The translations under genes were made by a program, and so were the position numbers. The notes below the pieces were generated by a model that did no database searches, had not been told where the DNA came from, and worked only from the letters and a program-made list of their open reading frames with translations. Positions 3,001 through 21,724 of a stretch of 64,000 nucleotides of DNA are shown in pieces. Numbering within the stretch: the stretch's first letter is position 1; every line of letters begins with the position of its first letter. The DNA comes from an uncultured Bacilli bacterium (GTDB lineage Bacteria > Bacillota_I > Bacilli_A > RF39 > UBA660). The stretch covers positions 5,495 through 69,494 of the forward strand of contig CATNCE010000002.1 of NCBI GenBank assembly GCA_950097225.1. The letters run 5' to 3'.

Positions 3001-5268
3001 GTAGTCTGGGAAAGTTTCATTTAATTCTTTGATAAAGTTATCTATTATCTTTTTATCTTCATCATCACTATCTAAATCATTCCCTAGATTTTGAATATAC
3101 TCTATAAAACCTCTTAATTCACTTGGATTATGGATTTGATTATCTATATCTCTAATGACATCTTCTTCGGTTTCGCCATTTTCAAGATTTGCTTCATAGC
3201 CTTGTAAATCATATTCTTTGATAAAATCATTTAATCGTTTTGCTAGACTATCTTCTTGTTTTTCAGTAAAAGTATCTTCTTGATTTAATTCATCTATTCG
3301 TTCCTGTTCTTCTCCTAACCAAGCAGGATACTCTCTTAATTCTTTTGGATTAAGGTATCTATTAAGGCTAATTAGTTCCTTTATTCGCTTTTCAACATAA
3401 TTCCATTTTAAAAGTTTTTCTTTTCTATTTTCAAGATTTCCACGATATAAAGTAAGTCCTTTACTATCAGCAGTATAACCTATACCAGATCCACGAATAA
3501 TATATGAACTTCCACTTAATCCATACATATTTTTTATATAGTTAATATTTTCAGTTGTAGATAAACTTTTTTGAAATTGTCTATATATAGCATACTTTGT
3601 TTCAGTATGTCGTGTTTGAAAATATTTATCAATAAACTCTTGCGAAAATTCTAATTCGGGTATTTCTTTGCTATTTTCTTCATCTAATAAAGTCATCTGC
3701 TCTTTTTCAGATGGTAAGTATTTTTCTCTATCATTTAATTGATGAAGTAAAATCATTGAATCATAATGATATGTTAAATCTTCCCAAGATATAAAACTTT
3801 CTGTATCTCGTGATAAAAAATTACCTTTCCATAGTAATAAACCATTTTCAAAGGCTTTGTAACCATACATTTGTGTTCCAATAAAAATACCCACATATAC
3901 ATTTTCAAAAGAATTTTTAATGAACTCTGCTCTTTTTAAAGGCTCTTTTTCTAGTTCAAAATATCTTTTTACTTCTGCTTTGGGTATTTTTAAATGTGCA
4001 TTAGCAAGTATTTGATTGATTTTGTCATCTGTAACAACATACGGACAATGTGTCCCACTATCTACATCCCAAAAATCTAACTGTAAATTAGTTCTCTCGT
4101 TACTATCTCCTCTGCTCTCGCTTTCAAGTTGTTCATTAAGCCTATCCACTTCATCTGGTCTTTGGCTTTCAATTCTTCTGTTATATTCTCTTTCTTCGCC
4201 ATTTCCTCTATCATTTGTTCCACTCTCGTTTCGGCTATCGTTTGAACTTCCATCAAGTGTTCTGGTAATTTGCCCTGCATTAGAAGTGTCGTATATAGAG
4301 GCTTGTCGTTCTTCTTCAAGTGGCTTAATCTCATCAATGCGTATTTCCCATTTACTTGTTCTTCTTGTGGTGGTACTAGGTCTGGTATTTGATAATCGCC
4401 CACCATTTTGTAACTTATTTCTTTCATCTAAATCACTCCTCTCGGCATTATTCTTGCCATCATCTAAATCATACTCGTTTTGCTTATTATTATCAAATGT
4501 GTGAATTTTATCAATTTCACTTATTCGCACATTTTTTATTGTGCTATATATTTCACGAAGTCCAGACTCGGCAATATCACTTGTTGCCATACCTAGTCTT
4601 GTTATCGTATCATAAGTATTGAAATTTAATAATTCTCTAAAATCTTCCTTATCAAAATAATCATTAGGGTTTATTCCACAACGCTTTAACATTACATAAG
4701 CAACACTATTCTCTAATACTTTCTTGTAAATAGTTTTTATATTCAACTCATCAAGTTCTTCTAAAAAACTATTATCTTTAAAATACATTAGATTTGATAA
4801 ATAATCTGGCAAGTTATCTTCTACCATATTTTTAGCACTAGAAATAATAGCACTTGCTATGGTAGAGTTATCTTCTAATTCTCCATATCTATTTTCTAGG
4901 GCTTCGATAACATATTCTTCATAAGGTTTCGTAACAGACCATAGTATAACATTTTTACCGTGCTTACTATTGGTATCACTTACATCAAAAACATATCTTA
5001 AATAAGTATTACCATTATTTTCTGCAAGAAGTGCTATACCAGTTGCTCCTTTATTAACCCATCTTTTTAATGACTTATTCCAAGTTTCTATTTCAGCACA
5101 AGCACTTGCATAAGGCTTTTGTGCATAAATTAAAACTTGATCGGAAAATGGATACTTATAATTCATTGCAGCACACTCTAAAAATGATAGCCATTCACTT
5201 TGATTTGTACTTAAATCTTTTAATGTTTCCGAATATAATTCTGTTATATTTCTTAATTTATTAGCCAC
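1..5268 (-). CDS. Giant polyvalent conjugative-element protein, first 1756 codons only (3' end lies beyond the window start). Contains an ArdC-like N-terminal ssDNA-binding region, a low-complexity linker, middle LPD/YodL-like regions and an N6-adenine DNA methyltransferase module. A SNF2-type helicase part is expected outside the window.
   Basis: Absent from the supplied ORF track because it has no stop in the window. Hand translation of the minus strand: GTG at 5268 with GGAGG at 5276-5280 (7-nt spacer), and the frame stays open to nt 1. N-terminus reads YPFSDQVLIYAQKPYASACAEIETWNKSLKRWVNKGATGIALL (ArdC_N-like). SAM motif I is NILEPSCGVGNF (~1850-1890) and motif IV is GAIGNVPF (~1672-1696). 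The last residues are WIWSDIDRRERLSKIYNEKFN. Confidence 0.8.
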   Translation of the reverse strand, partial: MANKLRNITELYSETLKDLSTNQSEWLSFLECAAMNYKYPFSDQVLIYAQKPYASACAEIETWNKSLKRWVNKGATGIALLAENNGNTYLRYVFDVSDTNSKHGKNVILWSVTKPYEEYVIEALENRYGELEDNSTIASAIISSAKNMVEDNLPDYLSNLMYFKDNSFLEELDELNIKTIYKKVLENSVAYVMLKRCGINPNDYFDKEDFRELLNFNTYDTITRLGMATSDIAESGLREIYSTIKNVRISEIDKIHTFDNNKQNEYDLDDGKNNAERSDLDERNKLQNGGRLSNTRPSTTTRRTSKWEIRIDEIKPLEEERQASIYDTSNAGQITRTLDGSSNDSRNESGTNDRGNGEEREYNRRIESQRPDEVDRLNEQLESESRGDSNERTNLQLDFWDVDSGTHCPYVVTDDKINQILANAHLKIPKAEVKRYFELEKEPLKRAEFIKNSFENVYVGIFIGTQMYGYKAFENGLLLWKGNFLSRDTESFISWEDLTYHYDSMILLHQLNDREKYLPSEKEQMTLLDEENSKEIPELEFSQEFIDKYFQTRHTETKYAIYRQFQKSLSTTENINYIKNMYGLSGSSYIIRGSGIGYTADSKGLTLYRGNLENRKEKLLKWNYVEKRIKELISLNRYLNPKELREYPAWLGEEQERIDELNQEDTFTEKQEDSLAKRLNDFIKEYDLQGYEANLENGETEEDVIRDIDNQIHNPSELRGFIEYIQNLGNDLDSDDEDKKIIDNFIKELNETFPDYYYQVGDQVYIGADKFEILSLDNDIVRLYDYQYPLFNQEFSFDEFDRKVKENPCNDHLKIKVTETGELEKHNEYGEYDDEVDLVEHILSLYDMSDIKVNFDSNENIVIYSDDIDLEGLEVYDFLLNELFDYNEDGTVDKVNNHDLERLKEYRKKYETKVADQEKLEEDIIGKNIIIGDREYTIDSIDNDVVSLKDITFQNGVGFPIFRNEELSKVLSLLAEKEAEQKKETIIPNIAKKRRKRVTTFDIHPEIKNEDRNNFHITDDLLGVGSDREKFNRNLAAIKALKQCEEENRFATPEEQQILSQYVGWGGLSQAFEENNSSWADEHLKLKNILDDEEYRSAMSSTRTSFYTPPVVIRTMYKALESMGMKDGNILEPSCGVGNFLGMIPDTLKDCKLYGIEVDSISGRIARQLYQKSSIAVQGYENTELPDSFFDGAIGNVPFDSLKLLDKRYDKHNFLIHDYFFAKTLDKVRPGGIVAFITSKGTLDKENPSVRKYIAQRADLLGAIRLPNNTFKDNAGTKVTSDIIFLQKRDSITDLEPDWVYLDTDENGIKMNKYFVDNPDMVCGNMKMESTRYGMDSTCEAREDISLEEQLNNAISNIHAEIKEYEIDDIGEDEEDLSIPADYNVKNFSYTIVDNKVYYRENSRMYPQELPLTTENRIRGLIEIRECVRNLLELQTEDFPEEDIKQEQAKLNKLYDSFTKKYGLINSRANTSAFSNDNSFYLLCSLEILDENKELLKKADMFTKRTILPHKEVTSVDTANEALIVSMSEKARVDLEFMQKLCGLDMDKMITDLEGVIFNVPEYGDPNIWVTADEYLSGNIREKLKIAKEFAEDDPRFNINVKCLEEVMPKDLEPQEISVRLGATWLPTDVIDDFIDYLLSPSYNIRDRIQVHFMESTAQWNIEGKNYDRENVKAYSTYGTGRINAYKIIEETLNLKDVRIYDYIEKDGKKVPELNKKETAIAQAKQEQIKTAFDEWIWSDIDRRERLSKIYNEKFN
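4077..4427 (-). CDS. tnpV: TnpV-family small protein (116 aa), encoded in the +1 frame entirely inside the giant polyvalent ORF
   Basis: ATG at 4427 is immediately preceded by an in-frame TAG, with AGGAG at 4436-4440 (8-nt spacer). The product MKEISYKMVGDYQIPDL..GKYALMRLSHLKKNDKPLYTTLLMQGKLPEHL..ITEELKAKDQMKWIGLMNNLKARAEEIVTRELIYS matches the TnpV pattern from memory (GDYxxPxL, YLKxH, LKAxDQMxWVxxMNNI, AEEIVxxELIY). Confidence 0.65.
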   Translation of the reverse strand: MKEISYKMVGDYQIPDLVPPQEEQVNGKYALMRLSHLKKNDKPLYTTLLMQGKLPEHLMEVQTIAETRVEQMIEEMAKKENITEELKAKDQMKWIGLMNNLKARAEEIVTRELIYS

Positions 5269-5300
5269 TTACTCACCTCCTTATCTTTATTTTTCTTTTA

Positions 5301-5639
5301 CTACTCATTGTTAGAGTTATCTTGTTTAAGACTTTCTCTAGCATTTACTAAAACTTCATAATAGTTAGTTTCTATTTCTATATCTTCGGTATTAACAAGT
5401 AACATATAGATAATTTCACTTGCTTCGTTAGGATAGAAACGAATATCAACAAAAGTTTCTTGTTCTTCAGTAACTCGTGGGATACTATATCTCAATAATT
5501 TTTCTTTCAGTTTAGTAGCAGTTTCGCTTATTTTTTCATTATTAGAAGTCGTATATCTGGTAAGCATTTCAATTAAATAATTAAATTTTCCTATACTTAA
5601 ATCCACCTTAACTGGTGGTATTCTTTTTTGATATGGCAT
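5301..5639 (-). CDS. Hypothetical small ICE protein (112 aa)
   Basis: ORF with AAAGGA upstream of the ATG. It is tightly packed between neighbouring ICE genes. No motif recognised. Confidence 0.45.
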   Translation of the reverse strand: MPYQKRIPPVKVDLSIGKFNYLIEMLTRYTTSNNEKISETATKLKEKLLRYSIPRVTEEQETFVDIRFYPNEASEIIYMLLVNTEDIEIETNYYEVLVNARESLKQDNSNNE

Positions 5640-5641
5640 AA

Positions 5642-5872
5642 TTAACCATCCTTTCTATTTTCTTTATAGCCACTTAAAAAAGCAATGATTTGCTTATTCT
5701 TAACGGCATTTTTAAATTCAATGATAATCATAGTTTCATTATTTTGTAGATTTGGTATTTTCGTTAAATCTTCCAATTTTAAAGCAAGTATTTTTTTATC
5801 AGTATTGAATCCTGCTTCAAATAGTTTTTCTAAAGTCTTTGTAATTTGACCTATATTATATTTTGTTTCCAA
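5642..5872 (-). CDS. Hypothetical small ICE protein (~76 aa)
   Basis: The track ORF runs to 5908. I prefer the TTG at 5872, which sits 6 nt after GGAGG (5879-5883) and removes the overlap with the sortase stop at 5884. No motif recognised. Confidence 0.4.
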   Translation of the reverse strand: METKYNIGQITKTLEKLFEAGFNTDKKILALKLEDLTKIPNLQNNETMIIIEFKNAVKNKQIIAFLSGYKENRKDG

Positions 5873-5883
5873 ATAAATCCCTC

Positions 5884-6540
5884 CTAGACTTTCTCTACTA
5901 ATTCGCATATATAGATAATTTGCTTATTCGTATTGTGTCTGCAAGTGATTAAAGTTAGTGTACTTTTTTCGGCATTTCTAACAATATTAGCAGTACCAGT
6001 TTTCTCAATGTCGTATTGATTAAGAACTTTGTATTTGTACTCGTTACCATTATAGAAAATACTTACTTCATCATCTCTTTCGAGTTTATGAAGATTTTTA
6101 AAATAAGCAGTTCTTCCACTTCCAGAGTGTCCTGCTAGGATCACATTTCCTTTGTCTTTATCTGGCATATCAGATTCTTTGACAACAAGTATATTTCTAT
6201 TAACATTGTTATAATAACTACCTTTATTTGCTAGACCTTTTTCTAACCCTATTTTAGGTATTTTGATTACTGCAAAATAATCTATTTTCGTTTTAGTAGG
6301 TTGTGGCTTTTCAGTTTCCACTTTTTCTTCTGGCACTTCTGGAGTAGTATCTTCTGCAATTTCTTTTTGTTCTTCAAAGAAAGTATCAATTAACTGTTCT
6401 TCGTTTTTTGTTTCAAGATAATTATATAAATACTTACCACCAATGATTAAAGTACCTAAAATGATAAGTAAAGAGCCAACTATGATTAGTTGACTCTTAC
6501 TACCTTTATTATTCTCGATTTTGTTTTTTCTTTTTAACAT
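5884..6540 (-). CDS. Sortase-family transpeptidase, membrane anchored
   Basis: N-terminal TM segment, His motif VILAGHSG and catalytic Cys motif TLTLITCRHN. The start overlaps the 3' end of the adhesin gene by 32 nt. Confidence 0.8.
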   Translation of the reverse strand: MLKRKNKIENNKGSKSQLIIVGSLLIILGTLIIGGKYLYNYLETKNEEQLIDTFFEEQKEIAEDTTPEVPEEKVETEKPQPTKTKIDYFAVIKIPKIGLEKGLANKGSYYNNVNRNILVVKESDMPDKDKGNVILAGHSGSGRTAYFKNLHKLERDDEVSIFYNGNEYKYKVLNQYDIEKTGTANIVRNAEKSTLTLITCRHNTNKQIIYICELVEKV

Positions 6541-9238
6541 AGATAATCGCTCCTATTCCTCCTAGAATAAACATTGTTCCAACAATTTCAATGAAGTGTG
6601 AATCAGTAATACCTGTACTTGGTACTTCAACGATTACTTTTTCATCAGTCATTGTTGCTTTTACAATTTCGCCATCTTCTTTGATTTCAAAATACATTCT
6701 TTCTGGATTTAAAGTATAGCCCTCTGGTGCTTCTTTCTCCAAAATATAGTATTTTCCATAACGAATTTCTGAAATAGTAATTTTTCCATTGTCATCAGTT
6801 CTTCCACTAAAAATTAACTCATCTTTATCATTGTAGATTTCGATTAAAGTGTTAGGTAGTGGCTCTCCTGTTGATACATCAGTTTTAGTAAATTCAAGAG
6901 TTCCTGTTACTGGTTTATTTTTCATTTCAGCCTTAACGATTTCTCCGTTTTCTTTTAATTCAAAATAAACTTTTTCATCAGTTATTACATAGCCTGTGCT
7001 TGGCTCTTTTTCTACGATATAGTATTTTCCAACTTTTAAATCTGTAATAACGATTTTTCCATCTTGATCTGTTTTACCAGTAAAGATTAGTTCATCATTT
7101 TCAGTATAAATTTCAATGATAGTATCTGGAATAACATCTCCATTTACTAAATCAGTTTTAGTAAATTCAAGAGTAGCCTTTTTAAGATAATTTAAAGCAC
7201 TATATGATTCATAAACTATTGGAGTTTCATCATCAACTTGTTTTAATGTGAAATAGTGTTTATCTCCATCAAGAATATAGTCATCTTGTGTTTTTACTTC
7301 AATTAAATAGTATTTTCCTAGTGGAAGTTTCTTTGTTTTAGCATAGCCGTTTTCATCTGTAACGATAGTATCTACTTTGTCGCCTTTATTATAGTATAAA
7401 TGGTTTCCATCAGCAGACTTAATATCTTCTTCTGCATAGATTTCAAAAGTAACTCCACTTAATTTTTTCTTAGCATAAACATATTCGCCATCTTTAATCA
7501 CTAAATCTTCGCCAACTTTATAAATCTCTAATTGACCTTTAATAGGTGTATTCTTATAAGTTACTGTGATAAATGCTCCATAAGTTGTATAGTCATAATG
7601 CGTATCATTTCCAATAGTGAATTTTAGACCGTTTTTATCTTTTAAGTAACCATTTGGTGCAGACACTTCAATTAGTTTGTAATTTCCTGCAACTAATTTT
7701 AAAGGTGTTACTAATATACCATTTTCATCAGTTTTAAATTCACTAATTACTTTACCACCTACGAATTGAGATACATATTGTTTAGTATCTTCATTAAAGA
7801 TTTTGAAAGTAGTATCTTTAATGGCAATAGTCTTTCCAGTTTCTTCATCTACTTTTATTACTTTCAAATAAGCAGTCAAAGAGTTGTTTAAAATATTGTA
7901 ATATTGCTCTTTTTCGCTTGTTTCACTTACTGTGATATAGAAGTCATAAATCTTTTCATATCCAGTTGTCGTATTTACTTGATGGAACTTCCAAACTCCA
8001 TAAGGCAAATTGATAGAAGCATAACCGTTTTTATCTGTTGTGATTTCATCAAACTTGTTTCCGTTTGGGTAATAAATTTCAAAAGTAATACCTGCTTCTG
8101 CATTTAGGAATTTTGTTTCTCCCTCCACGTGTTCGTATTGTTTTAAAATACTTACATAGTTTTTAATTACTTTTTCTACAACATCTACTCTTGCAGAGTC
8201 TTTTCCTTTTACATCAATATTGTAGCGAGTTTTATCTAATTCATAACCCTCACTTGGTTTGATTTCTTGTAAATAGTAATCATTCCAAGATAATACTGCG
8301 TCACTTTTAAAGTAACCGTTTTCATCAGTAACAACTGTTGTCACTAATCTTCCCGTAGCAGTTTCGTATATACCATACTCTGCTCCTTTTAAAGTTGCTT
8401 GACCCTGTGCAGTTTCAGTTTCAACATCTTTCTTATAACCCTCTACTGGTGTTGTATAACTATTTACTCTAACTCTAGCCATAACTGGATCAGTAGTTCC
8501 AGGTACAAACATATTTTGAATTTCGTTTCCAACGAATAACTTATAGCCACTAGCATAAGGCATATTTTTTGTTAAAGTTAAATCTATTTTTCCATTTCTA
8601 GTAGGCTTAATTGTTAGTGTATTTCCATTAACACTATATTCTGCACCACTAACACTTACACTATAATTTCCAAGTACATTATTAGTATCTGTTAGTGTAA
8701 TAGTTTCTCCTACTTGTGCTTTATAAACTCCACCATCAAAACTTGGTCTATCATAGTGGTGTTCGATTAGTCTATTGATTTCTGCTTTTTCTGTTGATAC
8801 ATCAAATGGTGTTCCTGCTCCCCATCTTTCTGTTGAGAAAGTTGTATTGGCTCCGTGTCCAATGATAATATCCCATATCATACCTTGAGTAGCAGCACGA
8901 TATTGTAGTGTTTGGTGTCCCGGATAAGTATAACCGTAGTAACCGATTAACAATAATCTTTCTTTGATTTCATTTGGAAGTCCTGTTGCTTCCCAACTTC
9001 CAGGATTATAAATAGTTCCCTCTGGTATATTTGGCTCTATGCAATAAGATACTTCGCCATCCATTTCATATTGCATAAAATACCAAGAATGATGGTCAGT
9101 TCCATCTGCTCTTGCTCGATCATAATAATAGCCGGATTTTGTTTTTGTTAAAGTTGCTGCATTTACTGCTTGAGCATTAACAGTAAATCCAAGTAAAATA
9201 CCTAGTGTTAAAACTAGGCACATTCCAATTTTTTTCAT
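6509..9238 (-). CDS. Cell-wall-anchored surface adhesin: N-terminal thioester domain, then multiple Cna-B/SpaA-type (isopeptide-type) repeats and a VPSTG sorting signal
   Basis: Signal peptide MKKIGMCLVLTLGILLGFTVNAQA. Thioester signature YCIEPN (Cys codon 9041-9043) plus ATQGMIWDI (Gln codon 8885-8887). Repeated GKYYLIE..PxGY modules. C-terminus is VPSTG, a hydrophobic stretch, then KKKKQNRE. Confidence 0.85.
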   Translation of the reverse strand: MKKIGMCLVLTLGILLGFTVNAQAVNAATLTKTKSGYYYDRARADGTDHHSWYFMQYEMDGEVSYCIEPNIPEGTIYNPGSWEATGLPNEIKERLLLIGYYGYTYPGHQTLQYRAATQGMIWDIIIGHGANTTFSTERWGAGTPFDVSTEKAEINRLIEHHYDRPSFDGGVYKAQVGETITLTDTNNVLGNYSVSVSGAEYSVNGNTLTIKPTRNGKIDLTLTKNMPYASGYKLFVGNEIQNMFVPGTTDPVMARVRVNSYTTPVEGYKKDVETETAQGQATLKGAEYGIYETATGRLVTTVVTDENGYFKSDAVLSWNDYYLQEIKPSEGYELDKTRYNIDVKGKDSARVDVVEKVIKNYVSILKQYEHVEGETKFLNAEAGITFEIYYPNGNKFDEITTDKNGYASINLPYGVWKFHQVNTTTGYEKIYDFYITVSETSEKEQYYNILNNSLTAYLKVIKVDEETGKTIAIKDTTFKIFNEDTKQYVSQFVGGKVISEFKTDENGILVTPLKLVAGNYKLIEVSAPNGYLKDKNGLKFTIGNDTHYDYTTYGAFITVTYKNTPIKGQLEIYKVGEDLVIKDGEYVYAKKKLSGVTFEIYAEEDIKSADGNHLYYNKGDKVDTIVTDENGYAKTKKLPLGKYYLIEVKTQDDYILDGDKHYFTLKQVDDETPIVYESYSALNYLKKATLEFTKTDLVNGDVIPDTIIEIYTENDELIFTGKTDQDGKIVITDLKVGKYYIVEKEPSTGYVITDEKVYFELKENGEIVKAEMKNKPVTGTLEFTKTDVSTGEPLPNTLIEIYNDKDELIFSGRTDDNGKITISEIRYGKYYILEKEAPEGYTLNPERMYFEIKEDGEIVKATMTDEKVIVEVPSTGITDSHFIEIVGTMFILGGIGAIIYVKKKKQNRE
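6638..7174 (-). repeat. Tandem in-frame duplication (91 + 88 codons) encoding two Cna-B-like domains at the C-terminal end of the adhesin
   Basis: TLEFTKTDLVNGDVIPDTIIEIYTENDELIFTGKTDQDGKIVITDLKVGKYYIVEKEPSTGY... is followed by TLEFTKTDVSTGEPLPNTLIEIYNDKDELIFSGRTDDNGKITISEIRYGKYYILEKEAPEGY... Confidence 0.8.
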
Positions 9239-9304
9239 TTTTAATTTTCTCCTTTCTTACTCCTAAAATTAGGGCATAAAAAATGACTCTTGTTTTAAGA
9301 GCCA

Positions 9305-9997
9305 CTAATACATACTTTTTAATTTTGCGTCATTTCCCTCTCCACTCGCACAAAAGAAATGCAAATAATACCAAGTCTTACCGTTTTCATCTATCACAGA
9401 TGGATACACCCTAAAATAGTTTATATCTGGTTTTATCGGTGCTTCTGGGTGTTGTTCGTTATAATCTAAAACATAATCCAGTTCTTTGCTCTTAATTTCA
9501 TTACCACGAGCAGTCGCTTCACTATCAGAAGCAAACTCTTTTTTACCACCAGTTATTGATTCATAAAACTTTGTAGTTGCTCCACCGTTTTGTGGTTGAT
9601 TACTTGGAGTTTGACTAGGTGTAGTATTGTTACTTACATTTGGAGTTTCTTTTGGTGTTTCCTTTGGCACTTCTTTTTTCACAGAATCATTTTGCTTATT
9701 TTCTGTTTTGTTTTCAGATTTACTTGCTGAAGAAACATTCTTATTTTCTGGTTTAGAATCTGACTTAACTTCTTTTTTGGTTTCTTTTACTTCATCAACC
9801 TTTTCTTCTGGTATTATTTCACTTTCTGCTACTTTGTTTTCTTCGCTTTTAGATTCTTCTGCCACTTTTTCTTCTATGGTTTTCTCACTAACATTAACCT
9901 GTTCTAGTTTTGGCTTTTCTTGTTTATCTTGCAAATAGAAAACTGTACCTCCTGTCATAGAAATTAAAATGCTAATTAAAATCAATATTTTTTTCAT
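9305..9997 (-). CDS. Hypothetical membrane-anchored or secreted protein with a Lys/Glu/Ser-rich low-complexity region
   Basis: N-terminal hydrophobic segment MKKILILISILISMTGGTVFY, a K/E/S/N-rich middle and a globular C-terminal ~90 aa. No family recognised. Confidence 0.5.
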   Translation of the reverse strand: MKKILILISILISMTGGTVFYLQDKQEKPKLEQVNVSEKTIEEKVAEESKSEENKVAESEIIPEEKVDEVKETKKEVKSDSKPENKNVSSASKSENKTENKQNDSVKKEVPKETPKETPNVSNNTTPSQTPSNQPQNGGATTKFYESITGGKKEFASDSEATARGNEIKSKELDYVLDYNEQHPEAPIKPDINYFRVYPSVIDENGKTWYYLHFFCASGEGNDAKLKSMY

Positions 9998-10164
9998 ACA
10001 AATTCATCCCTTTCTTGATTTGTTGATGTTAGTATAAACTAAAGTATTTTTATTTGCATTTGTGTAAATTTCTAATATATATTTTTTTCAGTTAGTAATA
10101 ACAGTTAGTATATAAATACTAGGGGTAGGTTGTAGGAAGGGGAATAATGGAATAATAACTCCCA

Positions 10165-11109
10165 CTATCTAGCACCCTGTTGTCTTTGTCTTTCCATAGC
10201 CCTATTGTAATAGTCTAATGCTTTGTAAATATGCTTTATCCATTCGGTAGTTGGCATACCTTTTGGCATTTTAGGTTGTAAGTCTTTAAAATCTAATTTT
10301 AGTTTTTCAACTTGATTAGGTTTTTCACGACACATAATTTCTTCAATTTTATCTTCGCTTAACTCTCCCTTTTTACTTAAATCTTTCATTTCTTGAGCTT
10401 GGGATACTGTTGGTGTAGCAACATTACATTCAATACTATTTAAAAGCCATTTTTGTTCTTGCTTTGTAAGAAATGAAATTTCATACGCAGGGCTTAATGC
10501 AATAGTTTCATCATCTACCATATCAAGTAAAGGCTTTACTAATTCAGTAAGTCTTATAAATCTCTTAATTTGAGTGGTACTTTCGCCAAGTTCATCAGAT
10601 AATATTTCAACAGATTTTTTTCCAATCGACTTGTGTCCGAGTTGGTCACAAGTTAAATCATTTCTTTTACCTTGATGTGTCATTGCTTCTAATTTCATTT
10701 TATAAGCAAAGGCTCGTTCACTAGGCAATATCTTTTCCCTTTGTAAATTGCTATCTACCATAATAATAGTGGCTTCATCATCTGTAAGGTTTCTAACAAT
10801 ACACGGCATAGTTTCTTTATTAGCAATTTCACTTGCTTTTTTTCTTCTATGTCCAGAAATCATTTGATACTTTCCATTTGGAAGTGGTCTAACAAGTACA
10901 GGCAATAACACACCATATTCACTTATACTTTGTGCCATTTCTTGCATTTCTTCATTTACAATTACCTTGAATGGGTGATTTGGGAAGTCTTGAATATCTG
11001 CTAGTGAAATATCTACAACTTTTTCTAAATTGGCTTCTTGCCTTTCTTGCTCTGTTGTAAATAAATCATCTAACTTTGGTAGAGGCATTTTTATTTCGCT
11101 CTTTGCCAC
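10165..11109 (-). CDS. parB: ParB/Spo0J-family partition (nuclease-like) protein of the ICE
   Basis: ParB N-terminal box YQMISGHRRKKASEIA. Start moved to GTG 11109 (AGGAGG at 11119-11124, 9-nt spacer) instead of the track start at 11175. Confidence 0.8.
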   Translation of the reverse strand: MAKSEIKMPLPKLDDLFTTEQERQEANLEKVVDISLADIQDFPNHPFKVIVNEEMQEMAQSISEYGVLLPVLVRPLPNGKYQMISGHRRKKASEIANKETMPCIVRNLTDDEATIIMVDSNLQREKILPSERAFAYKMKLEAMTHQGKRNDLTCDQLGHKSIGKKSVEILSDELGESTTQIKRFIRLTELVKPLLDMVDDETIALSPAYEISFLTKQEQKWLLNSIECNVATPTVSQAQEMKDLSKKGELSEDKIEEIMCREKPNQVEKLKLDFKDLQPKMPKGMPTTEWIKHIYKALDYYNRAMERQRQQGAR

Positions 11110-11890
11110 TTTCAAGCACCTCCTTTGCAAATGAAGAATATGCTTCTGCCACTTTTCCATTTTTGTCATAATCAAAAATACTTTGTCCAGTAGAAGTTGA
11201 TTCTGCTGTTTTTATTGCTAAAGGTATTTGTGTATCGTAAATTTTTATAACTCTACCATAATTTTCTTGCAACTGTACTTTCATTTCTCTTGATAGATTA
11301 GTTCTTTTATCTACTAAAGTTAGTAATACACCATCTATTTTTAATTGTGGATTTAATTTAGTTCTTGCTTTATTAACAGACTTTAATAACTCGGTCATTC
11401 CAACTGCTGATAAATACTGACTTTGCATTGGGATTATAACACTATCTGCACTCGCTAAAGCATTAACTGTTAAAGTTCCTAGTGATGGTGGACAGTCTAT
11501 AAGAATATAGTCATAGTTATCTTTTACTTTATCCAAACAATTCTTTAGTAAATATTCCCTACTCATAGCACTATACAAGACTGGCTCTAATACTGACAGT
11601 CTTAAATTAGATGGTATCAAAGAAACATTTTCGTTATGATGAAGTATTGATTCTTCTACTTCAATATTTCTACCCTCTGCTGACTGCTCTAATAAATCTG
11701 CTACTGTTAATGACAACTTATCTTGATCTCGCCAACCCATATATAAAGTAAGACTACCCTGTGGGTCTGTATCTACTAACAATACCTTTTTGCCTTCTTT
11801 TGCTAAAGCAACTCCTAGACTAAAAGTTGTGGTGGTCTTGCCCACTCCACCTTTTTGATTTGCCACTGCAATTACTTTGCATTGCGACAT
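11066..11890 (-). CDS. parA: ParA/Soj-family ATPase of the ICE
   Basis: Deviant Walker A KVIAVANQKGGVGKTTT, then ILIDCPPSLG. Start set at ATG 11890 (GGAGG at 11899-11903, 8-nt spacer). The track N-terminal extension to 12025 is rejected. Confidence 0.85.
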   Translation of the reverse strand: MSQCKVIAVANQKGGVGKTTTTFSLGVALAKEGKKVLLVDTDPQGSLTLYMGWRDQDKLSLTVADLLEQSAEGRNIEVEESILHHNENVSLIPSNLRLSVLEPVLYSAMSREYLLKNCLDKVKDNYDYILIDCPPSLGTLTVNALASADSVIIPMQSQYLSAVGMTELLKSVNKARTKLNPQLKIDGVLLTLVDKRTNLSREMKVQLQENYGRVIKIYDTQIPLAIKTAESTSTGQSIFDYDKNGKVAEAYSSFAKEVLESGKERNKNASTKVR

Positions 11891-11956
11891 AAACATTTCC
11901 TCCTTTCTTTTAAACTCTAGCCACTCTATATAAATAAAATGGCTATGTATGGGCAT

Positions 11957-11986
11957 AAAAAAAGAACTGACCATTATAATCAGTTC
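11957..11986 (-). terminator. Rho-independent terminator ~70 nt upstream of parA
   Basis: Minus strand reads GAACTGA-TTATAATGG-TCAGTTC followed by T7. Confidence 0.5.
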
Positions 11987-12180
11987 AAAGTATGTTTTTG
12001 TGATTTTATTATTTAGTGTCTGCAATTTGGCTCATAAGTGAGGAAACAAGTGAGAACCTATATGTTCTTAAATGTCGTAATCACCTATCTAATTCCTATT
12101 ATAAATAATGCCAAAATTACTATGTTTTTATGAATTTTTATTGTTTTTGACCGTTTTTTAATGAAAATATGCAAGATCTA

Positions 12181-12247
12181 AATTGGATAATTTCCTTTAT
12201 TTATAAGGGTTTAAGGGTGTTCTTAATTAAATCGTAATCAACCAGTT
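12181..12247. repeat. 67-bp direct repeat, copy 1 (64/67 identical to 15093-15159)
   Basis: aattggataatttcctttatttataagggtttaagggtgttcttaattaaatcgtaatcaaccagtt compared base by base with copy 2; 3 mismatches. Confidence 0.9.
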
Positions 12248-12326
12248 GATTGTTGTATTTTGTCGATTATTGTTGTCCATTGTTTTCACTTCCTTTTTAA
12301 AGTCTTGAACAAATATAATTATAACA

Positions 12327-12353
12327 TAAAAGAGTAGATTTTGTACTTACTCT
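12327..12353 (-). terminator. Possible weak terminator after the HEPN gene
   Basis: Minus strand AGAGTA-N11-TACTCT followed by TTTTAT, 20 nt after the stop at 12374. Confidence 0.35.
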
Positions 12354-12373
12354 ATTCTTATTTACAATTGCTA

Positions 12374-13783
12374 TTAATCAGTATTAATAATCATATGACA
12401 TTGAAACAAATCGTTTATGCAATTCTTAATACTATAATTATCTAATCCTAATCTTTTTAATTGCATCATATAAATAACTCTTTCTAAAAATATAATATCT
12501 AGCATAGCTAAATCAGTAAAATCTTTATTAAGATTTCCATGAGCAAAATCATTACGCTGTTCAGCTAATCTATGCCCCATATCTTTATAAATTACTTTTT
12601 CATCATTCATTCCATATAATTGATTTGCAAAATCTTTAGTAATATCATCTAATTGATTAAATGTATAATCAAGATTTGCATCTAAACCTGTTAAATCAAC
12701 AAAATCATGTAATTTATTAATTATTTTCTTAGCGCGTCTATTATTACCTCTATACTTATCTTCTAATTGAATTAATTCTATATTAATTATTGCTTCTGCA
12801 TTTATTCTAGCCTGTTTCTTTCTCTTTCCTTCTGGAAACAATTGAGAAAACTCCCATTCAAATCCAGCAGTTGTTAATACAAAACTTGATTCTGTCATTA
12901 CATGCGAATCATCATATGATAAAGGTATATGACGAGTATACAATGTATTATCAGATATTCCCTGTAAAATGTTATGGGCAATACTATATACATAATCCAA
13001 TGGTATAAACCTCTTAGAAATAATTTCTTCATCTTCTGCTATTAAAAATTCATCATTTATGATTACTACACCATTTTTTTCATATAATTCTTCTTCGTTT
13101 AAAAAACTAGTATAAACTTCTTTAAAAGTAATATTTTGCCGATATGTTAAAAATTGTATAAACTTTTTAGCAATATAATAAATTCTTCTGATAAACATAT
13201 AGTCATCAGTTGGTTCAAAATCAAATGACATTCTTGTTCTAATTTTTAATGGATGTTCTAAATCTTTTCCACTAAAAACTTTATCTATATCAAAATTACA
13301 TTTTACTTTTCTTCCATCAATTTCAAATTCTTCTGATTTTATACCTACAACATCACAAGGTTTTAATTTCAAGTCTACTTCTTCTTTACTTGGATTGAAA
13401 GATTTGATTGTTCTTTTTGTATTGTAAATATAATTTAATTCACTTGAATAAAAATTAATTTTAGCAATTTTGTCTTTTCTATTTACCCTTATTACCATTT
13501 TAATAATTATCTTTAATACAGAGTTTAACCTCCCTATTTGATAACTTTTTGGTATCATAATAATTTTTTCATAAGTTTCACTTGAAATTCCTACCAAATA
13601 ATCATTTTCTATAATCGGATGAATTGGTGTAACTACACCTGGAATACCATTAGCTAAAGGCTCATAAAACATAGCATTACTTTTTTCTTTAAATCCTTCT
13701 TTTGGAACTAAACTTAATTCTCTATTATTTTCTAACACGAAAAAATATTCAATATCTTTATAAGTTAAATTACCACTAATCAT
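12374..13783 (-). CDS. HEPN-domain protein (469 aa), ApeA-like candidate abortive-infection/defence effector
   Basis: C-terminal motif LAEQRNDFAHGNL contains the HEPN Rx4H signature (R-N-D-F-A-H). The large N-terminal region was not recognised. AGGTGA sits upstream of ATG 13783. Confidence 0.55.
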   Translation of the reverse strand: MISGNLTYKDIEYFFVLENNRELSLVPKEGFKEKSNAMFYEPLANGIPGVVTPIHPIIENDYLVGISSETYEKIIMIPKSYQIGRLNSVLKIIIKMVIRVNRKDKIAKINFYSSELNYIYNTKRTIKSFNPSKEEVDLKLKPCDVVGIKSEEFEIDGRKVKCNFDIDKVFSGKDLEHPLKIRTRMSFDFEPTDDYMFIRRIYYIAKKFIQFLTYRQNITFKEVYTSFLNEEELYEKNGVVIINDEFLIAEDEEIISKRFIPLDYVYSIAHNILQGISDNTLYTRHIPLSYDDSHVMTESSFVLTTAGFEWEFSQLFPEGKRKKQARINAEAIINIELIQLEDKYRGNNRRAKKIINKLHDFVDLTGLDANLDYTFNQLDDITKDFANQLYGMNDEKVIYKDMGHRLAEQRNDFAHGNLNKDFTDLAMLDIIFLERVIYMMQLKRLGLDNYSIKNCINDLFQCHMIINTD

Positions 13784-13785
13784 TT

Positions 13786-14156
13786 TTATTTATCACCTAT
13801 TCCTTTTTGAATTAACTCAGCTGTATCTTTCATTTCTTTATATTCTTCATAATGACAAGCATAGGTAATTCCAAAAACACAATTATATAGATTGTTAACA
13901 TCGGTAATTATAAAATCAATAAATGCTTCAATTTTGTCATATTTCACTTTCACTTTAACTTTACCTACTTTTATCTTAGAATCAAATTACCTTAAATATA
14001 TAAGGATTTTTTGTTTTCATTATAAAATCCAATATTCTTTCATTACTAGGTTTTCTTCTGTCTATTTTTATATTTGTTATTTCATCCACATCTTCTAATT
14101 TTACATCATCAAGATTTTAATTTTTCTGCTACTCCTTTAATATTATATTTATTCAT
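13786..14156 (-). pseudogene. Frameshifted remnant of a small mobile-element gene (~120 codons when reconstructed; possibly DUF6870-like)
   Basis: Three consecutive minus-strand ORF pieces in different frames: MNKYNIKGVAEKLKS*, NLDDVKLEDVDEITNIKIDRRKPSNERILDFIMKTKNPYIFKVI*, and FDSKIKVGKVKVKVKYDKIEAFIDF...ELIQKGIGDK*. The first shift lies in an A-run. The final stop at 13786-13788 is 2 nt before the HEPN ATG. Confidence 0.4.
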
Positions 14157-14218
14157 TTTCTACCTTTTTTCTATAATAATTTTATTATTTTGAAAGAAGA
14201 ATACAGATGTACAAAATA

Positions 14219-15061
14219 CTAGATATTATCTTTTTTTCCTAATAGTTTTATCTTTTCTGCATTATTAAGTATATCAAGTTGATACTTAGCAATGCTACTT
14301 GATATTTCAAATCTTTCTTCTTTGCTTTTTCCTTCTTTAATTAGTTCTGCGTTATGTGATTCTAAATTAGATAATACTGTTAATTCATTTATTGACGCAT
14401 AATCTCTAACATTTGAATTTTTTGCTAAATTAGGATTAAGTTCTATCCATCTTTTAGCAGTTGTATTAAATAAGGCAACATTTAAAATATCTGCTTCTTC
14501 TGCATACTTTAACCATTCTCTATTTTTATAATAATCTTTACTAGGTAATATATAATTTTTAATTGCATCTGTATGAATAAGATAATTATTTTTAGTTAAA
14601 ATTCTTTTTACATCCCATTCCCTATTTTGATTTTCTAACTCTTTTAGTCTTTCAAATTCTTTTATCAAATATAGTTTAAAAACTGGACTAATAGAAGATG
14701 CAAATTCAAAAGCAATATCTTTATGAGTATAAGTTCCGCCATATTTACCACGTTTCGAATATATCCCAATTGCGTTCGTTTTATTACACCATTCTGTAAC
14801 ACTTAATGTAAAAGTATGAAGTCCTGCCTCACTTTTAAACCCGTCGAATTCGACGGAATTAAAATCTGGATTGTAAATTGACTCCCAAGTACCTAAAAAT
14901 TCTAAAGTAATTCTATTTCTTAACCAATTTCTGATAACATCATCTGATGTAGATTTTCCTTCTTTAAATTTGGTAAAATCAGAAATACAAATATAATCGC
15001 TATCATTTATATTTGTTATATTCACTTTAATATTTTGAACTTCAATTATTTTGTTTGTCAT
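14219..15061 (-). CDS. KilA-N domain DNA-binding protein (280 aa)
   Basis: GGTYTHKDIAFEFASSISPVFKLYLIKEFERLKE and the preceding ICISDFTK...NWLRNR region match the KilA-N pattern from memory. AGAGGTGA lies upstream of the ATG. Confidence 0.7.
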   Translation of the reverse strand: MTNKIIEVQNIKVNITNINDSDYICISDFTKFKEGKSTSDDVIRNWLRNRITLEFLGTWESIYNPDFNSVEFDGFKSEAGLHTFTLSVTEWCNKTNAIGIYSKRGKYGGTYTHKDIAFEFASSISPVFKLYLIKEFERLKELENQNREWDVKRILTKNNYLIHTDAIKNYILPSKDYYKNREWLKYAEEADILNVALFNTTAKRWIELNPNLAKNSNVRDYASINELTVLSNLESHNAELIKEGKSKEERFEISSSIAKYQLDILNNAEKIKLLGKKDNI

Positions 15062-15092
15062 ATATTCACCTCTTTTCTATGTTCTTAAATTC

Positions 15093-15159
15093 AATTGGAT
15101 AATTTTCTTTATTTATAAGAGTTTAATGGTGTTCTTAATTAAATCGTAATCAACCAGTT
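15093..15159. repeat. 67-bp direct repeat, copy 2
   Basis: aattggataattttctttatttataagagtttaatggtgttcttaattaaatcgtaatcaaccagtt. It ends 32 nt upstream of the KilA-N start codon. Confidence 0.9.
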
Positions 15160-15261
15160 TATATTTGTCTGGTTTTGCCGTTTTTTATTTGTACAATATT
15201 AGCACTTCTAATCTTTTAGAGTATCAAAATTGATACTTTTAATTGTCATTATTTTTTTCTA

Positions 15262-15537
15262 TTAATAGTAATAGATATCTTCTATTATTTGCCAGTCATT
15301 ATTTAAAATAACGCCATTTACTAATTTTGCACTAAATAATTCCTCTACGCTATTAAAATAAGACTCATCTGTTTTCCCTATCCATTGAAAAGATATTTTA
15401 TCTTTTAATGGTATAATCATATATTCGTTTCCATTTATTTTAACGCATAGCTCTGGTTCCACGCCTTTTTTTAAATACTCATTTAATTTTTGTTTAGTAT
15501 ATTTAATGTCATACTCATACATTTCTTCTTTGTTCAT
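15262..15537 (-). CDS. Hypothetical protein (91 aa)
   Basis: ORF overlapping the upstream P-loop gene by 23 nt, which suggests translational coupling. No motif recognised. Confidence 0.4.
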   Translation of the reverse strand: MNKEEMYEYDIKYTKQKLNEYLKKGVEPELCVKINGNEYMIIPLKDKISFQWIGKTDESYFNSVEELFSAKLVNGVILNNDWQIIEDIYYY

Positions 15538-16048
15538 TTTTAAGTTCTCCTTTTTTTATTATAGTATTTAAAATATTATCGGCCACCTTATCAACAGAAA
15601 TATTTGTAGTATCTATTTGATAACCATTGAAGTTTTTAAAAGCACTTATGAATTTGTCAACTTGTGCATAAGCCCATCCTGTGCTATTACCTCTTTTGTC
15701 TAATCTTTTTGCTATCTCTTCTTTTGTTGCGGTTAAAATAAAATCGTAAACTATTATGCCTTCATTTCTTAAATTACCAATAATTTCATTATAGTACTTT
15801 TTATTGGTTATCGTCATGGGAACAATCGTGACTCTGTGGCTACGATTTAAATCTTTTAGTATCTCAAAATTTAAAGTACGCCATAGCTCGTAATCTTGAA
15901 AGTCATCTTTCTTTTCCGGCATTATATTAAATAAAAATTCTCCAACGTTTTCTGGATCATATATAAGGGAATCTTTTATTTCTAACTTTAATGCGTTTGC
16001 TATAGTTGTTTTGCCTACACCAAAGCTGCCATTAATCCAAATGATCAT
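15515..16048 (-). CDS. TmrB-like P-loop ATPase/kinase-fold protein
   Basis: MIIWINGSFGVGKTTIA Walker A at the N-terminus. Start moved to ATG 16048 (GGAGG, 8-nt spacer). Confidence 0.6.
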   Translation of the reverse strand: MIIWINGSFGVGKTTIANALKLEIKDSLIYDPENVGEFLFNIMPEKKDDFQDYELWRTLNFEILKDLNRSHRVTIVPMTITNKKYYNEIIGNLRNEGIIVYDFILTATKEEIAKRLDKRGNSTGWAYAQVDKFISAFKNFNGYQIDTTNISVDKVADNILNTIIKKGELKNEQRRNV

Positions 16049-16088
16049 ATAGATTTCCTCCACATCAGTAAAATGATTCACTAAAAAA

Positions 16089-16118
16089 ATTATAGCATGT
16101 ATTTTACTGATTAGTAAA
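16089..16118 (-). promoter_or_regulatory. Candidate sigma-A promoter for the TmrB-like gene
   Basis: Minus strand TTTACT (16118-16113), 18-nt spacer, TATAAT (16094-16089). Confidence 0.4.
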
Positions 16119-16140
16119 TTAATAAGAGTATTAATAGTAA

Positions 16141-16167
16141 AGAAAAAGGACCCTTGATGTAAGGATC
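16141..16167 (-). terminator. Rho-independent terminator after the 572-aa gene
   Basis: Minus strand GATCCTT-ACATC-AAGGGTC followed by TTTTTCTTT. Confidence 0.5.
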
Positions 16168-16176
16168 TTAAAAAAG

Positions 16177-19765: not shown

Positions 19766-19775
19766 TTTATTCCTC

Positions 19776-20354
19776 CTAATCGGTATTTATTATCTCTTTT
19801 ATCTTCGCACGTATTTCTGGTAAGCGATTGTTTTCAAAATCTGAATGCGCTTTTAGAAAACGCCTATTTAATGGAGATGGATGCGGCAACACAATTGCTA
19901 GTTTACCATGTAAATAGTTGTTTTTTAATACTAAATCCACGAATTTTTCATTGGGGAAGAAGATTTTAGCAGATAAAGCCCCTATTATAATATAGATTTG
20001 ATTATCAAGAATTTGCATTTCTTTTTCTACCCATTTGTTATAACAACATTTAGGTGGCTTGCGATCACCGCCGTTTTTGTCTTTACCTGGATAACAATGA
20101 GCTAAGGCTCCAATATAAAAATTATCCGTATTATAGAACTCTTCCTCACTTATTTGATACCATTTATGGATTAATGTTTTACCAGATTGATCATTAAATG
20201 GCTTTTTTGTGTCATGGACATTTTTAGATGGCGCTTGACTTATTTGGACAATTTTGGAATTTTCTTTTCCCCAAAGAATTGGAGTTGGTTCAAAGCCAAA
20301 GTTTTCCTGGCAAAAGCGACAACGTTTAATCTCATTCATTAGACTTTCAAACAT
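19776..20354 (-). CDS. Uracil-DNA glycosylase superfamily protein
   Basis: CRFCQENFGFEPTPI...ISQAPS...PFNDQSGKTL...HCYPGKDKNGGDRKPPKCC pattern. Start moved to ATG 20354. Confidence 0.55.
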   Translation of the reverse strand: MFESLMNEIKRCRFCQENFGFEPTPILWGKENSKIVQISQAPSKNVHDTKKPFNDQSGKTLIHKWYQISEEEFYNTDNFYIGALAHCYPGKDKNGGDRKPPKCCYNKWVEKEMQILDNQIYIIIGALSAKIFFPNEKFVDLVLKNNYLHGKLAIVLPHPSPLNRRFLKAHSDFENNRLPEIRAKIKEIINTD

Positions 20355-20371
20355 ACTTAAGATCACTTCCT

Positions 20372-20851
20372 TTATTTTATATTTATCTGACTTATTAATT
20401 TAGATAACATTTCAATATCACTAATATTTTTATGTTTTGGTACATGAATAAAAATCATTTTAGTCTTTAAATGATTTTCTTCGATGTATTTTAATCCTTC
20501 AAAATATAAATTATTACATAGATAGTTTCCAGCATTATCAGATATTTCAATGGTATATTCACTTGGTATTTCATTAAATAGATGATTATAATCACAAGTT
20601 GTTTGATATTTTGTAATTCCATTGGCTAAGATTTCAATTCTTATGGTGTCTAATTTTAAAGGTGCTTGCCCTATGGAGACAATAAAATCATATTCTTTAT
20701 TTTGAATAGTCTTGATTAATTCTCGAGTAGATGCCGAATAACTATTTTTCAAATATAGTTTATCATTTACAGGTAATTTATCTAAAATGATTTTAGAAGC
20801 ATTATTAATCCCTAAAAAGGCGGTAAAAAGAACTTTTTTGGTATTCATCAT
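20372..20851 (-). CDS. pcp: Pyroglutamyl-peptidase I (C15)-like protein
   Basis: Triad-like motifs IRIEILAN (Glu), DNAGNYLCNNLYF (Cys) and IFIHVP (His). Confidence 0.6.
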   Translation of the reverse strand: MMNTKKVLFTAFLGINNASKIILDKLPVNDKLYLKNSYSASTRELIKTIQNKEYDFIVSIGQAPLKLDTIRIEILANGITKYQTTCDYNHLFNEIPSEYTIEISDNAGNYLCNNLYFEGLKYIEENHLKTKMIFIHVPKHKNISDIEMLSKLISQINIK

Positions 20852-20882
20852 AAATATTTTCCCTTCTTGTCATGGTGTTATT

Positions 20883-21620: not shown

Positions 21621-21724
21621 ATTATTCTCCTTAAAAACACTATACCATACATTTGTTCTTGTATGCAACACTAAATTTTATAAGCAACTGCATATAAAAA
21701 GCAAATTTTAAGATTTGCTCGTTA

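Follow-up and report, generated by a model that had tools for sequence, protein, structure and literature searches.

Staphylococcal cassette chromosome elements (SCC, SCCmec) reside at rlmH (orfX) of staphylococci, where their Ccr serine recombinases act, the end of the gene is restored upon insertion and tandem units with direct repeats occur, including pseudo-SCC units without a recombinase. In Streptococcus thermophilus, the ICESt1/ICESt3-CIME arrays at fda have arisen by tandem accretion of ICEs (integrative and conjugative elements), IMEs (integrative and mobilizable elements) and CIMEs (cis-mobilizable elements) at one attachment (att) site (PMC5704250). Streptococcal ICEs located in rbgA use tyrosine integrases (PMC4701971), and the 83-bp attB of one of them, Tn5253, is composed of 63 nt upstream and the first 20 nt of rbgA (PMC6079316). 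Here, a locus is described on a window of 64,000 nucleotides from an uncultured Bacilli bacterium (GTDB lineage RF39; UBA660; assembly GCA_950097225.1, contig CATNCE010000002.1, positions 5,495 to 69,494), where two direct repeats bracket a 2.9-kb cassette with genes for a KilA-N protein, a DUF6870 protein (decayed) and a HEPN-like protein next to the parA end of an ICE. Both repeats are, with high probability, attL-type junctions at which a 5' leader of rbgA meets the left arm of an integrated element, the 67-bp repeat being the shared core together with the left arms, almost identical in sequence, that two related elements contribute.

As for the Tn5253/Tn5252 ICEs, insertion is into the 5' end of rbgA, the upstream region and the gene start are replaced while the protein core is unchanged, and long repeats flank the element (PMC6079316, PMC4701971). 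In contrast, Tn5253 possesses a tyrosine integrase and Xis, and its attB ends at nt 20 of the gene, whereas at the locus described here the break is located at about codon 13-17 (INW|YPGHM), ~40-50 nt into the coding sequence, and the linked enzymes are serine recombinases. With the ICE/IME/CIME arrays the locus has in common elements side by side at one target, att-type direct repeats between them, inner elements without recombination and transfer genes and the possibility of cis-mobilization. Those arrays, however, involve tyrosine integrases, occupy the 3' end of a gene and consist of few large elements, while the locus here is linked to large serine recombinases (LSRs), occupies a 5' end and is expanded in relatives to arrays of up to seven units of ~1 kb. 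SCC elements equally combine serine recombinases, a housekeeping gene end that is restored by the element and tandem units some of which are recombinase-less, but differ in the target (rlmH 3' end versus rbgA 5' end) and in the size of the units (10-60 kb versus ~1 kb). The finding is tandem accretion at an att site and its new aspect is the linkage of serine recombinases to the 5' end of rbgA: where integration was known only for tyrosine integrase-encoding streptococcal ICEs, an uncultured family of gut Bacilli has a hotspot of serine recombinase-linked elements.

The initial annotation of the window had reported two 67-bp direct repeats, identical at 64/67 positions and 2912 bp apart, which a repeat search reproduced and extended to 76 nt at 92% identity (12181-12256 and 15093-15168, with the same spacing of 2912 bp). 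The continuation of the similarity on the higher-coordinate side of each copy is equally real; it reaches 116 nt at 83% in BLASTN and represents two rbgA 5' leaders that differ in age, while three mismatches distinguish the arm of copy 1 from the arm of copy 2. A 31-mer exact in both copies occurs twice in the window versus zero times expected (100 shuffles). That the repeat could be a common dispersed intergenic sequence, considered beforehand as a potential refutation, is rejected, as a BLAST search and a profile search, both covering the entire genome (1.61 Mb in 58 contigs), recover two copies only. All cassette and ICE genes are located on the minus strand in this region and each repeat copy is upstream of a gene; as annotated, copy 1 precedes parA (11890..11066) and copy 2 precedes the KilA-N gene (15061..14219), ending 32 bp before its start. 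A survey of Pfam domains and open reading frames (ORFs) between the copies showed no recombinase and no genes other than those for KilA-N, the decayed DUF6870 and the HEPN-like protein, which confirms the initial description of this interval and gives its frameshifted small gene an identity. An Rfam scan of the window detected no family at the repeats, its single match being a tRNA at 55.8 kb.

The nature of the repeat is disclosed by its relatives. Among 301 genomes of the family, from which 20 module-bearing regions were taken to build a profile, 90 contain the repeat sequence, often in two or more copies at a spacing of 0.7-3 kb and frequently at the end of a contig; outside the family, it was found in one genome among 301 sampled across the class, and collections of plasmids and phages gave no match to it. 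The profile defines a module of ~150 nt, with 64 occurrences in 21 loci in the first survey, always on a single strand and in arrays of up to seven. The first ~52 nt of the module (AGGAAGTGA-N5-ATG and ~13 codons ending in ...ATCAACTGG) constitute a ribosome-binding site (RBS) and an ORF start of the form M..NNRQNxTINW, and the remaining ~100 nt (GTTGATTACGATTTA...CCCTTATAAATAAAGG...AGATCTTGCATATTTT) are non-coding. In several arrays, the downstream-most module is only ~55 nt long and its ORF runs on as INWYPGHMAKTK... into a GTPase of ~290 aa (Pfam MMR_HSR1) followed by the genes for RNase HII and topoisomerase I; domain and neighbours identify this gene as the core gene rbgA/ylqF. Upstream of the arrays rplS and lepB are located. 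In 19 module-less genomes the native start of rbgA is built in the same way (e.g. AAGGAAGTGATAAAAATGAACAATAAACAAAATCTAACCAATATCAAT|TGGTACCC), and in two of these lepB directly abuts rbgA in the order rplS-lepB-rbgA, thus providing empty sites. As the left third of the module matches the native rbgA start, this third is the displaced rbgA 5' end and the rest the end of an inserted element, with the join between leader and arm placed by the aligned sequences at AACTGG|T.

In the genome of the window (G000), the window is part of contig C2 and rbgA is found on contig C17. With the module as a guide, the two junctions of the window, all on the minus strand, are composed as follows:

15208..15091, minus strand: module match of copy 2 (positions 4-118 of the module hidden Markov model, HMM)
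15160..15208, minus strand: left half of copy 2, decayed relic of the original rbgA RBS and 5' codons of the lineage (a start, then an early stop)
15153..15159, minus strand: core of copy 2, AACTGGT, in register with the core of copy 1 (offset 2912); homology between genomes breaks here
15093..15152, minus strand: P' arm of the KilA-N/HEPN element in copy 2, which reads GTTGATTACGATTTAATTAAGAACACC... and was aligned to 63 other modules
12295..12145, minus strand: module match of copy 1 (module HMM positions 1-151)
12252..12295, minus strand: left half of copy 1 with RBS AGGAAGTGA, ATG (12280) and first rbgA codons (MDNNNRQNTT...)
12280..12227, minus strand: orphan micro-ORF of 17 codons, the stranded rbgA start in copy 1
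12241..12251, minus strand: core of copy 1, AATCAACTGGT, the sole stretch common to attL and attR (C17) of the ICE and to the empty site
12145..12240, minus strand: element arm of copy 1, i.e. the left end of the ICE (GTTGATTACGATTTAATTAAG... CCCTTATAAATAAAGG ... AGATCTTGCATATTTT), without counterpart in ICE-free strains

The left half of copy 1 is at the same time the right end of the cassette and, in ICE-free strains, the working rbgA 5' end. Copy 2 has been eroded on both sides. Behind the arm, ~120 nt of the otherwise conserved leader are deleted, and the left half (CGGCAAAACCAGACAAATATAAACTGG) agrees at ~22/27 positions (hand count) with the native 5' end of rbgA in the same-genus genome G011 (CGACAAAATCAGGCAAATATCAATTGG); as it has lost its reading frame, it fits the oldest displaced rbgA leader. 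The crossover is proposed to occur at a TG dinucleotide, which would be 15156..15155 in copy 2 and 12244..12243 in copy 1.

The boundary and the order of insertion are evident from strains that lack the ICE. In assembled Logan contigs of mouse gut metagenomes, the KilA-N/HEPN cassette is represented at ~99-100% identity (in X1-X3 together with its right flank, at ~99%) with essentially no depth over parA. In a 23.9-kb contig of X2 and in contigs of X3 and X12, three metagenomes from three different studies, window position 12241 runs straight into the rbgA body (ATCCAGGGCATATGGCCAAAAC..., ...ATCCAGGGCATATGGCCAAAACAAAAAAAC; WYPGHMAKTKK of rbgA), identical to the rbgA body on C17. Lacking the ICE, these contigs are natural ICE-empty sites that fix the left boundary of the ICE at 12240/12241, and they explain the orphan 17-codon ORF upstream of parA as the former working rbgA start (MDNNNRQNTTINW-YPGHM...). 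As the empty sites carry the cassette, the cassette predates the ICE and is a separate, earlier insertion. The search of relatives for empty sites, recommended in the initial annotation, was thus successful twice, with the ICE-empty junctions of the metagenomes and with the lepB-rbgA arrangement of the two module-less genomes. Furthermore, the same ICE type adjoins three different cassettes in G000, G269 and G216, the ICE gene clusters of the window also following the last module in the latter two genomes, which shows that cassette and ICE arrived independently and do not habitually travel together.

At the far end of the ICE, where a further copy of the repeat had been suggested to be sought, C17 indeed harbours an attR at ~15780-15840, at the start of rbgA (15829..14948), and serine recombinase genes abutting rbgA. 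Encoded there are two full-length LSRs of 528 and 569 aa, a DUF6870 protein and a truncated LSR, an N-terminal fragment of 163 aa. Together with copy 2 (15091-15208) and copy 1 (12145-12295), the genome possesses three att-type sites with an AACTGGT core in the same orientation. The rbgA start on C17 (ATGAATAATTCTGATAAAGAAAATGTTCTTAATAAAAGTGTAATCAACTGG|TATCCAGGGCATATGG, N-terminal leader MNNSDKENVLNKSVINW) differs from the leader stranded in copy 1 (ATGGACAACAATAATCGACAAAATACAACAATCAACTGG|TTGATTACG) and only AATCAACTGGT is common to both, the true identity between attL and attR of the ICE amounting to 11 bp only. Junction anatomy, ICE-empty sites and attR consequently uphold the earlier suggestion of an att-like site duplicated by tandem accretion beside a recombinase-less element with defence-type cargo, and add to it the target gene, the type of recombinase and the long cassette arrays in relatives.

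Large serine recombinases use an attP of ~40-50 bp that is imperfectly dyad-symmetric about a non-palindromic central dinucleotide and has only a short identity to attB. The attP of the ICE is likewise dyad-symmetric and ~46 bp in length; reconstructed for G000 it reads TTAATAAAAGTGTAATCAAC-TG-GTTGATTACGATTTAATTAAG, with 17/20 positions symmetric around TG. In G269, an ICE of the same type is complete on one contig (G269:C2), where ~58 kb separate rbgA from the last module; the attP of this ICE (GGTTGCATAAAAGTGTAATCAAC-TG-GTTGATTACGATTTATTGCAACC) is symmetric at 19/23 positions, and the outer attP arms covary between the two genomes (TTAAT/ATTAA in G000 versus TTGCA/TGCAA in G269). At the matching end, the G269 ICE carries a pair of LSRs 87% identical to the C17 recombinases. 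In at least six genomes, members of a clade of ~410-aa serine recombinases are encoded at a distance of 0.3-2.6 kb from modules, typically as the rbgA-proximal unit, and the domain composition Resolvase, Recombinase and Zn-ribbon (Pfam) is seen in a ~404-aa relative in locus L022. The catalyst would most likely be an LSR of the ICE type, with its gene at the end of the ICE next to rbgA, as we infer from linkage and site symmetry.

Taken together, both elements most probably entered rbgA (ylqF), which encodes an essential GTPase of ribosome assembly, near its 5' end at the I-N-W codons, with the core AATCAAC-TG-GT. Each element brings a conserved left arm (GTTGATTACGATTTAATTAAG...) and a right end with substitute RBS, ATG and ~13-17 codons, so that insertion displaces the old rbgA 5' end and supplies a new one. 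In a first step, the 2.9-kb KilA-N/DUF6870/HEPN element inserted, creating copy 2, the rbgA remnant of which subsequently decayed; in a second step, the ~58-kb ICE inserted between cassette and rbgA, creating copy 1 with the orphan 17-codon ORF as the remnant. Each integration swaps the upstream control region of rbgA and the N-terminal tail of the essential protein (MDNNNRQNTTINW in strains without the ICE, MNNSDKENVLNKSVINW in its presence), and rbgA is now located directly downstream of the ICE recombinase genes (window 12227-12280; C17:15780-15829).

The genes of the cassette and the adjoining part of the ICE are the following:

14219..15061, minus strand: KilA-N protein, 280 aa, first cassette gene (Pfam KilA-N, E 2.1e-18)
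13786..14156, minus strand: decayed, frameshifted DUF6870 gene (tblastn homology 14125..13988)
12374..13783, minus strand: HEPN-like protein, 469 aa, last cassette gene (RNDFAH as the Rx4H motif)
11891..12144, minus strand: conserved ICE leader between arm and parA (invariant DNA blocks in an alignment of 19 leaders)
12075..12054, minus strand: second P'-like half-site GGTGATTACGACATTTAAGAAC within the ICE leader
11986..11964, minus strand: terminator-like hairpin within the ICE leader (terminator scan)
11890..11066, minus strand: parA (Pfam)
11175..10165, minus strand: parB (Pfam)
1..11890, minus strand: ICE body in the window, including a surface adhesin and a giant polyvalent protein (Pfam); continues beyond window and contig

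Along its entire length, the KilA-N protein matches PDC-S22, a family of defence candidates in PADLOC (E 1.7e-112). The HEPN-like protein shows Pfam HEPN_MAE_28990 at a sub-threshold level only (E 0.005) and has no family match in PADLOC or NCBIfam. The decayed DUF6870 gene retains 74-76% identity over residues 17-62 to intact proteins from the C17 end of the ICE and from other cassettes (tblastn); gene cluster 3 corresponds to Pfam DUF6870. Proteins of this type (~90 aa) are encoded between the ICE LSR genes (C17:19243-19518) and in many recombinase-less cassettes directly after a RhuM, Bro-N or KilA-N gene (cluster 3 in L023, L027, L029, L031 and L033; window 13988-14125). DUF6870 is a candidate recombination directionality factor.

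Considering the family as a whole, 285 modules in 130 loci remain after removal of duplicates, all co-oriented and in arrays of up to seven. They bound 155 cassettes with a median length of 1.3 kb (interquartile range 0.8-2.0 kb), four of which encode a serine recombinase homologue, a count that underestimates rbgA-proximal units as the half-module there is sometimes undetected. Cassette ORFs of at least 100 aa are on the rbgA strand in 247 of 269 cases, with 22 on the opposite strand, and end right at the RBS of the next module. Among 205 non-redundant cassette ORFs, Pfam identified RhuM (23 ORFs), GNAT (~20), Bro-N (14), ASCH (7), Peptidase S51 (6), UDG (5), NUDIX, methyltransferases and HD (4 each) and dCMP deaminases (3), besides YhcG and DUF6870. 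A common layout of ~2 kb consists of a DNA-binding gene (RhuM, Bro-N/DinD-like, YhcG or KilA-N), DUF6870 and a variable last gene, and the KilA-N/DUF6870/HEPN order of the window cassette conforms to it. Cassettes 94-99% identical across species are followed by unrelated next cassettes, with the homology stopping exactly at AAYTG|G. Among species-representative genomes, an exact 20-mer of the arm occurs on more than 117 contigs, which derive almost without exception from uncultured gut Bacilli. Arrays of recombinase-less mini-cassettes in ~30% of the sampled species (90/301) are the unexpected part of the finding.

The arrays invite comparison with integrons, which are not known from Firmicutes. 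Common features are small, co-oriented, recombinase-less and mostly single-gene cassettes, a conserved site module, one fixed platform and a cargo rich in GNAT proteins and small enzymes. In contrast to integrons, a search for PF00589 revealed no IntI tyrosine recombinase adjoining the insertion site, the module is a double-stranded-type site with a mimic of the rbgA coding start rather than a folded single-stranded attC hairpin, and the platform is the 5' end of an essential gene. In an integron-like scenario, each cassette would bring a replacement rbgA start, building up co-oriented arrays of seven or more units with defence-type cargo (RhuM, Bro-N, KilA-N, YhcG, HEPN) and small enzymes (GNAT, NUDIX, ASCH, UDG). 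Tentatively, and with more doubt than conviction, we propose that gut Bacilli with small genomes carry an integron-analogous platform, in which LSRs of resident ICEs or of ~4-kb mini-elements would move ~1-kb cassettes at rbgA with DUF6870 as the candidate directionality factor. If true, a serine recombinase-based analogue of integrons would be a new route for the assembly of accessory and defence genes, and would also yield compact natural attP/attB pairs.

How the repeats came to be, and by which enzyme, has been considered along two further lines, both with little probability. A duplicated promoter, operator or leader module that drives parA and the KilA-N gene, with cargo exchanged by homologous recombination, had been the second suggestion of the initial annotation; it agrees with the position of both copies upstream of genes on the same strand and with the invariant blocks of the leader behind the core, which include TTGCAT and a conserved TATAAT as well as another GTGATTACGA half-site. 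However, the region contains 20 promoter-like matches versus 27.9 expected and none inside the shared repeat, terminator signals are not enriched in the repeats either, and a strict -35/extended -10 combination (TTGCAT...TGnTAAAAT) is found downstream of the 67 bp in only 36/224 modules and is degenerate in copy 1. As copy 2 lacks most of the leader, the shared 67 bp are core plus recombinase arm. A promoter origin leaves unexplained that the module begins with coding sequence of rbgA and that the break in the ICE-empty site falls on the core, and the alignment of 19 leaders reveals no conserved RNA structure. This origin of the repeat is therefore very unlikely, but the conserved leader downstream of the core may have a regulatory role. 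A conserved RNA leader or riboswitch was considered separately and rejected, the 19-leader alignment folding with -1.6 kcal/mol and zero compensatory pairs. Catalysis by a tyrosine integrase, as for the Tn5253/Tn5252-type ICEs of streptococci, would be in line with the same target gene, the same general position and superficially similar long direct repeats, but is hardly credible. No Phage_integrase domain is encoded on C2, C17, the G269 ICE contig and five other array contigs, and the Pfam search (PF00589) of the ICE and array contigs of eight genomes, which led to the rejection of this candidate, had G222:C2 as the sole exception, with a distance of at least ~20 kb from the array. Serine recombinases hold the rbgA-proximal end, attL and attR share 11 bp and the attP is a ~46-bp dyad.

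Two views of the cassette itself are closer to each other. The cassette can be a decayed, CIME-like relic of a larger autonomous element, immobile on its own and at most carried along if the ICE recombinase uses copy 2, a view to which we assign almost an even chance. Alternatively, the repeat is a portable recombination site for integron-like gene capture and the KilA-N/HEPN unit one of many small cassettes (P' arm, 1-3 genes, mimic of the rbgA leader) that are excised in circular form and inserted into the rbgA 5' end by serine recombinases, which resident ICEs or small integrative elements would provide in trans; this would extend the junction reading and is a serious possibility without being the favoured one. 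A relic is indicated by the missing recombinase, the frameshifted DUF6870, the shortened leader of copy 2 and the decayed rbgA remnant, and small elements with a ~410-aa recombinase beside KilA-N at the same site (L040/G286) are possible intact ancestors; as the arm of copy 2 is of the same subtype as the ICE arm (ATTTAATTAAGAAC), recognition by the ICE enzyme is conceivable and cis-mobilization through copy 2 possible. On the other hand, a relic demands the loss of the recombinase in ~97% of the 155 cassettes with tidy gene-to-module boundaries kept, and the KilA-N and HEPN genes are intact. These figures, together with the co-orientation of the modules, the gene strand bias, the exchange of neighbours exactly at the core and a cargo resembling that of integrons (GNAT, NUDIX, ASCH, methyltransferases, UDG) with RhuM, Bro-N, KilA-N and YhcG in addition, are what gene capture would produce, and in metagenomes X4 and X6 the KilA-N cassette arm is indeed found behind other, intact rbgA-like left halves. 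Yet the integration of whole elements with subsequent shrinkage would create breakpoints at the core as well, and the decay of the KilA-N/HEPN cassette, with its frameshift, its ~120-nt leader deletion and its degraded left remnant, counts against gene capture as well.

Several observations weigh against the interpretation of the repeats as recombinase-made junctions, and in part also against gene capture. Recombinase action is deduced from linkage and site symmetry only, and beyond the ICEs a palindromic attP has been demonstrated for few elements only. With 180/301 genomes of the family, the presence of serine recombinases is common, so that presence alone is a weak linkage; as a correlate of arrays recombinase presence was discarded as uninformative. 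In G035 (locus L036, contig G035:C8), an array of seven modules is found in an assembly 91% complete with no homologue of the ICE recombinases at E<=1e-40, which implies that an array can be maintained in the absence of such a resident recombinase. In 142 cassettes, the symmetry between the own left arm and the right end (8.79) equals that of shuffled pairings (8.74 +/- 0.11), and most cassette right ends, including that of the KilA-N/HEPN cassette, look like a native rbgA leader and do not mirror the left arm. Finally, the search of the assembled contigs for excised circles, circular cassettes or other recombination products, including deletion joints between the repeats as initially advised, recovered no circle and no in-register joint; a joint 12120->15128 is out of register, and a joint 15077->12061 in metagenome contigs stems from relatives in which the leader is not deleted.

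Beyond the junctions, several minor observations concern the arms and the surroundings of the locus. At least three arm families occur behind one AACTG core, namely GTTGATTACGATTTA, (G/A)GATATCGGGATTTATG and CCTGTCTTGTATTTATG (modules in L092, L094, L132, L104, L066 and L176), which suggests that several recombinase specificities share a single rbgA target. A second arm motif (GGTGATTACGACATTTAAGAAC, compared with GTTGATTACGATTTAATTAAGAAC in the arm) follows ~165 nt downstream of the core, shortly ahead of the RBS of the first gene; it is nearly invariant across elements, at the same position in the 19 aligned leaders, and could be an accessory binding site for the recombinase or a regulator. 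The hairpin at 11964-11986, with a 10-bp stem and a T-run, is the single terminator-like hairpin of the region; situated just before the parA Shine-Dalgarno sequence, it could insulate the ICE genes from read-through of the displaced rbgA promoter and leader.

On the other side of the cassette, the 6.5 kb between lepB and copy 2 (window 15262-21671) encode a truncated AAA_15/GajA-like ATPase, a pyroglutamyl-peptidase fragment, a UDG, two large uncharacterised proteins, an AAA_33 kinase-like protein and a 91-aa ORF. Decayed modules were not detected between lepB and copy 2 even at E=50. For the UDG, a homologue of 60% identity opens a cassette in L039, and the whole stretch may be cargo from earlier accretion, the junctions of which have been erased. 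In its part near the recombinases (C17:20364-31602), the ICE harbours a MazF/PemK-like toxin gene and a cluster of a two-component system with an ABC/FtsX transporter, which by gene order looks like resistance cargo of the bacitracin or lantibiotic type.

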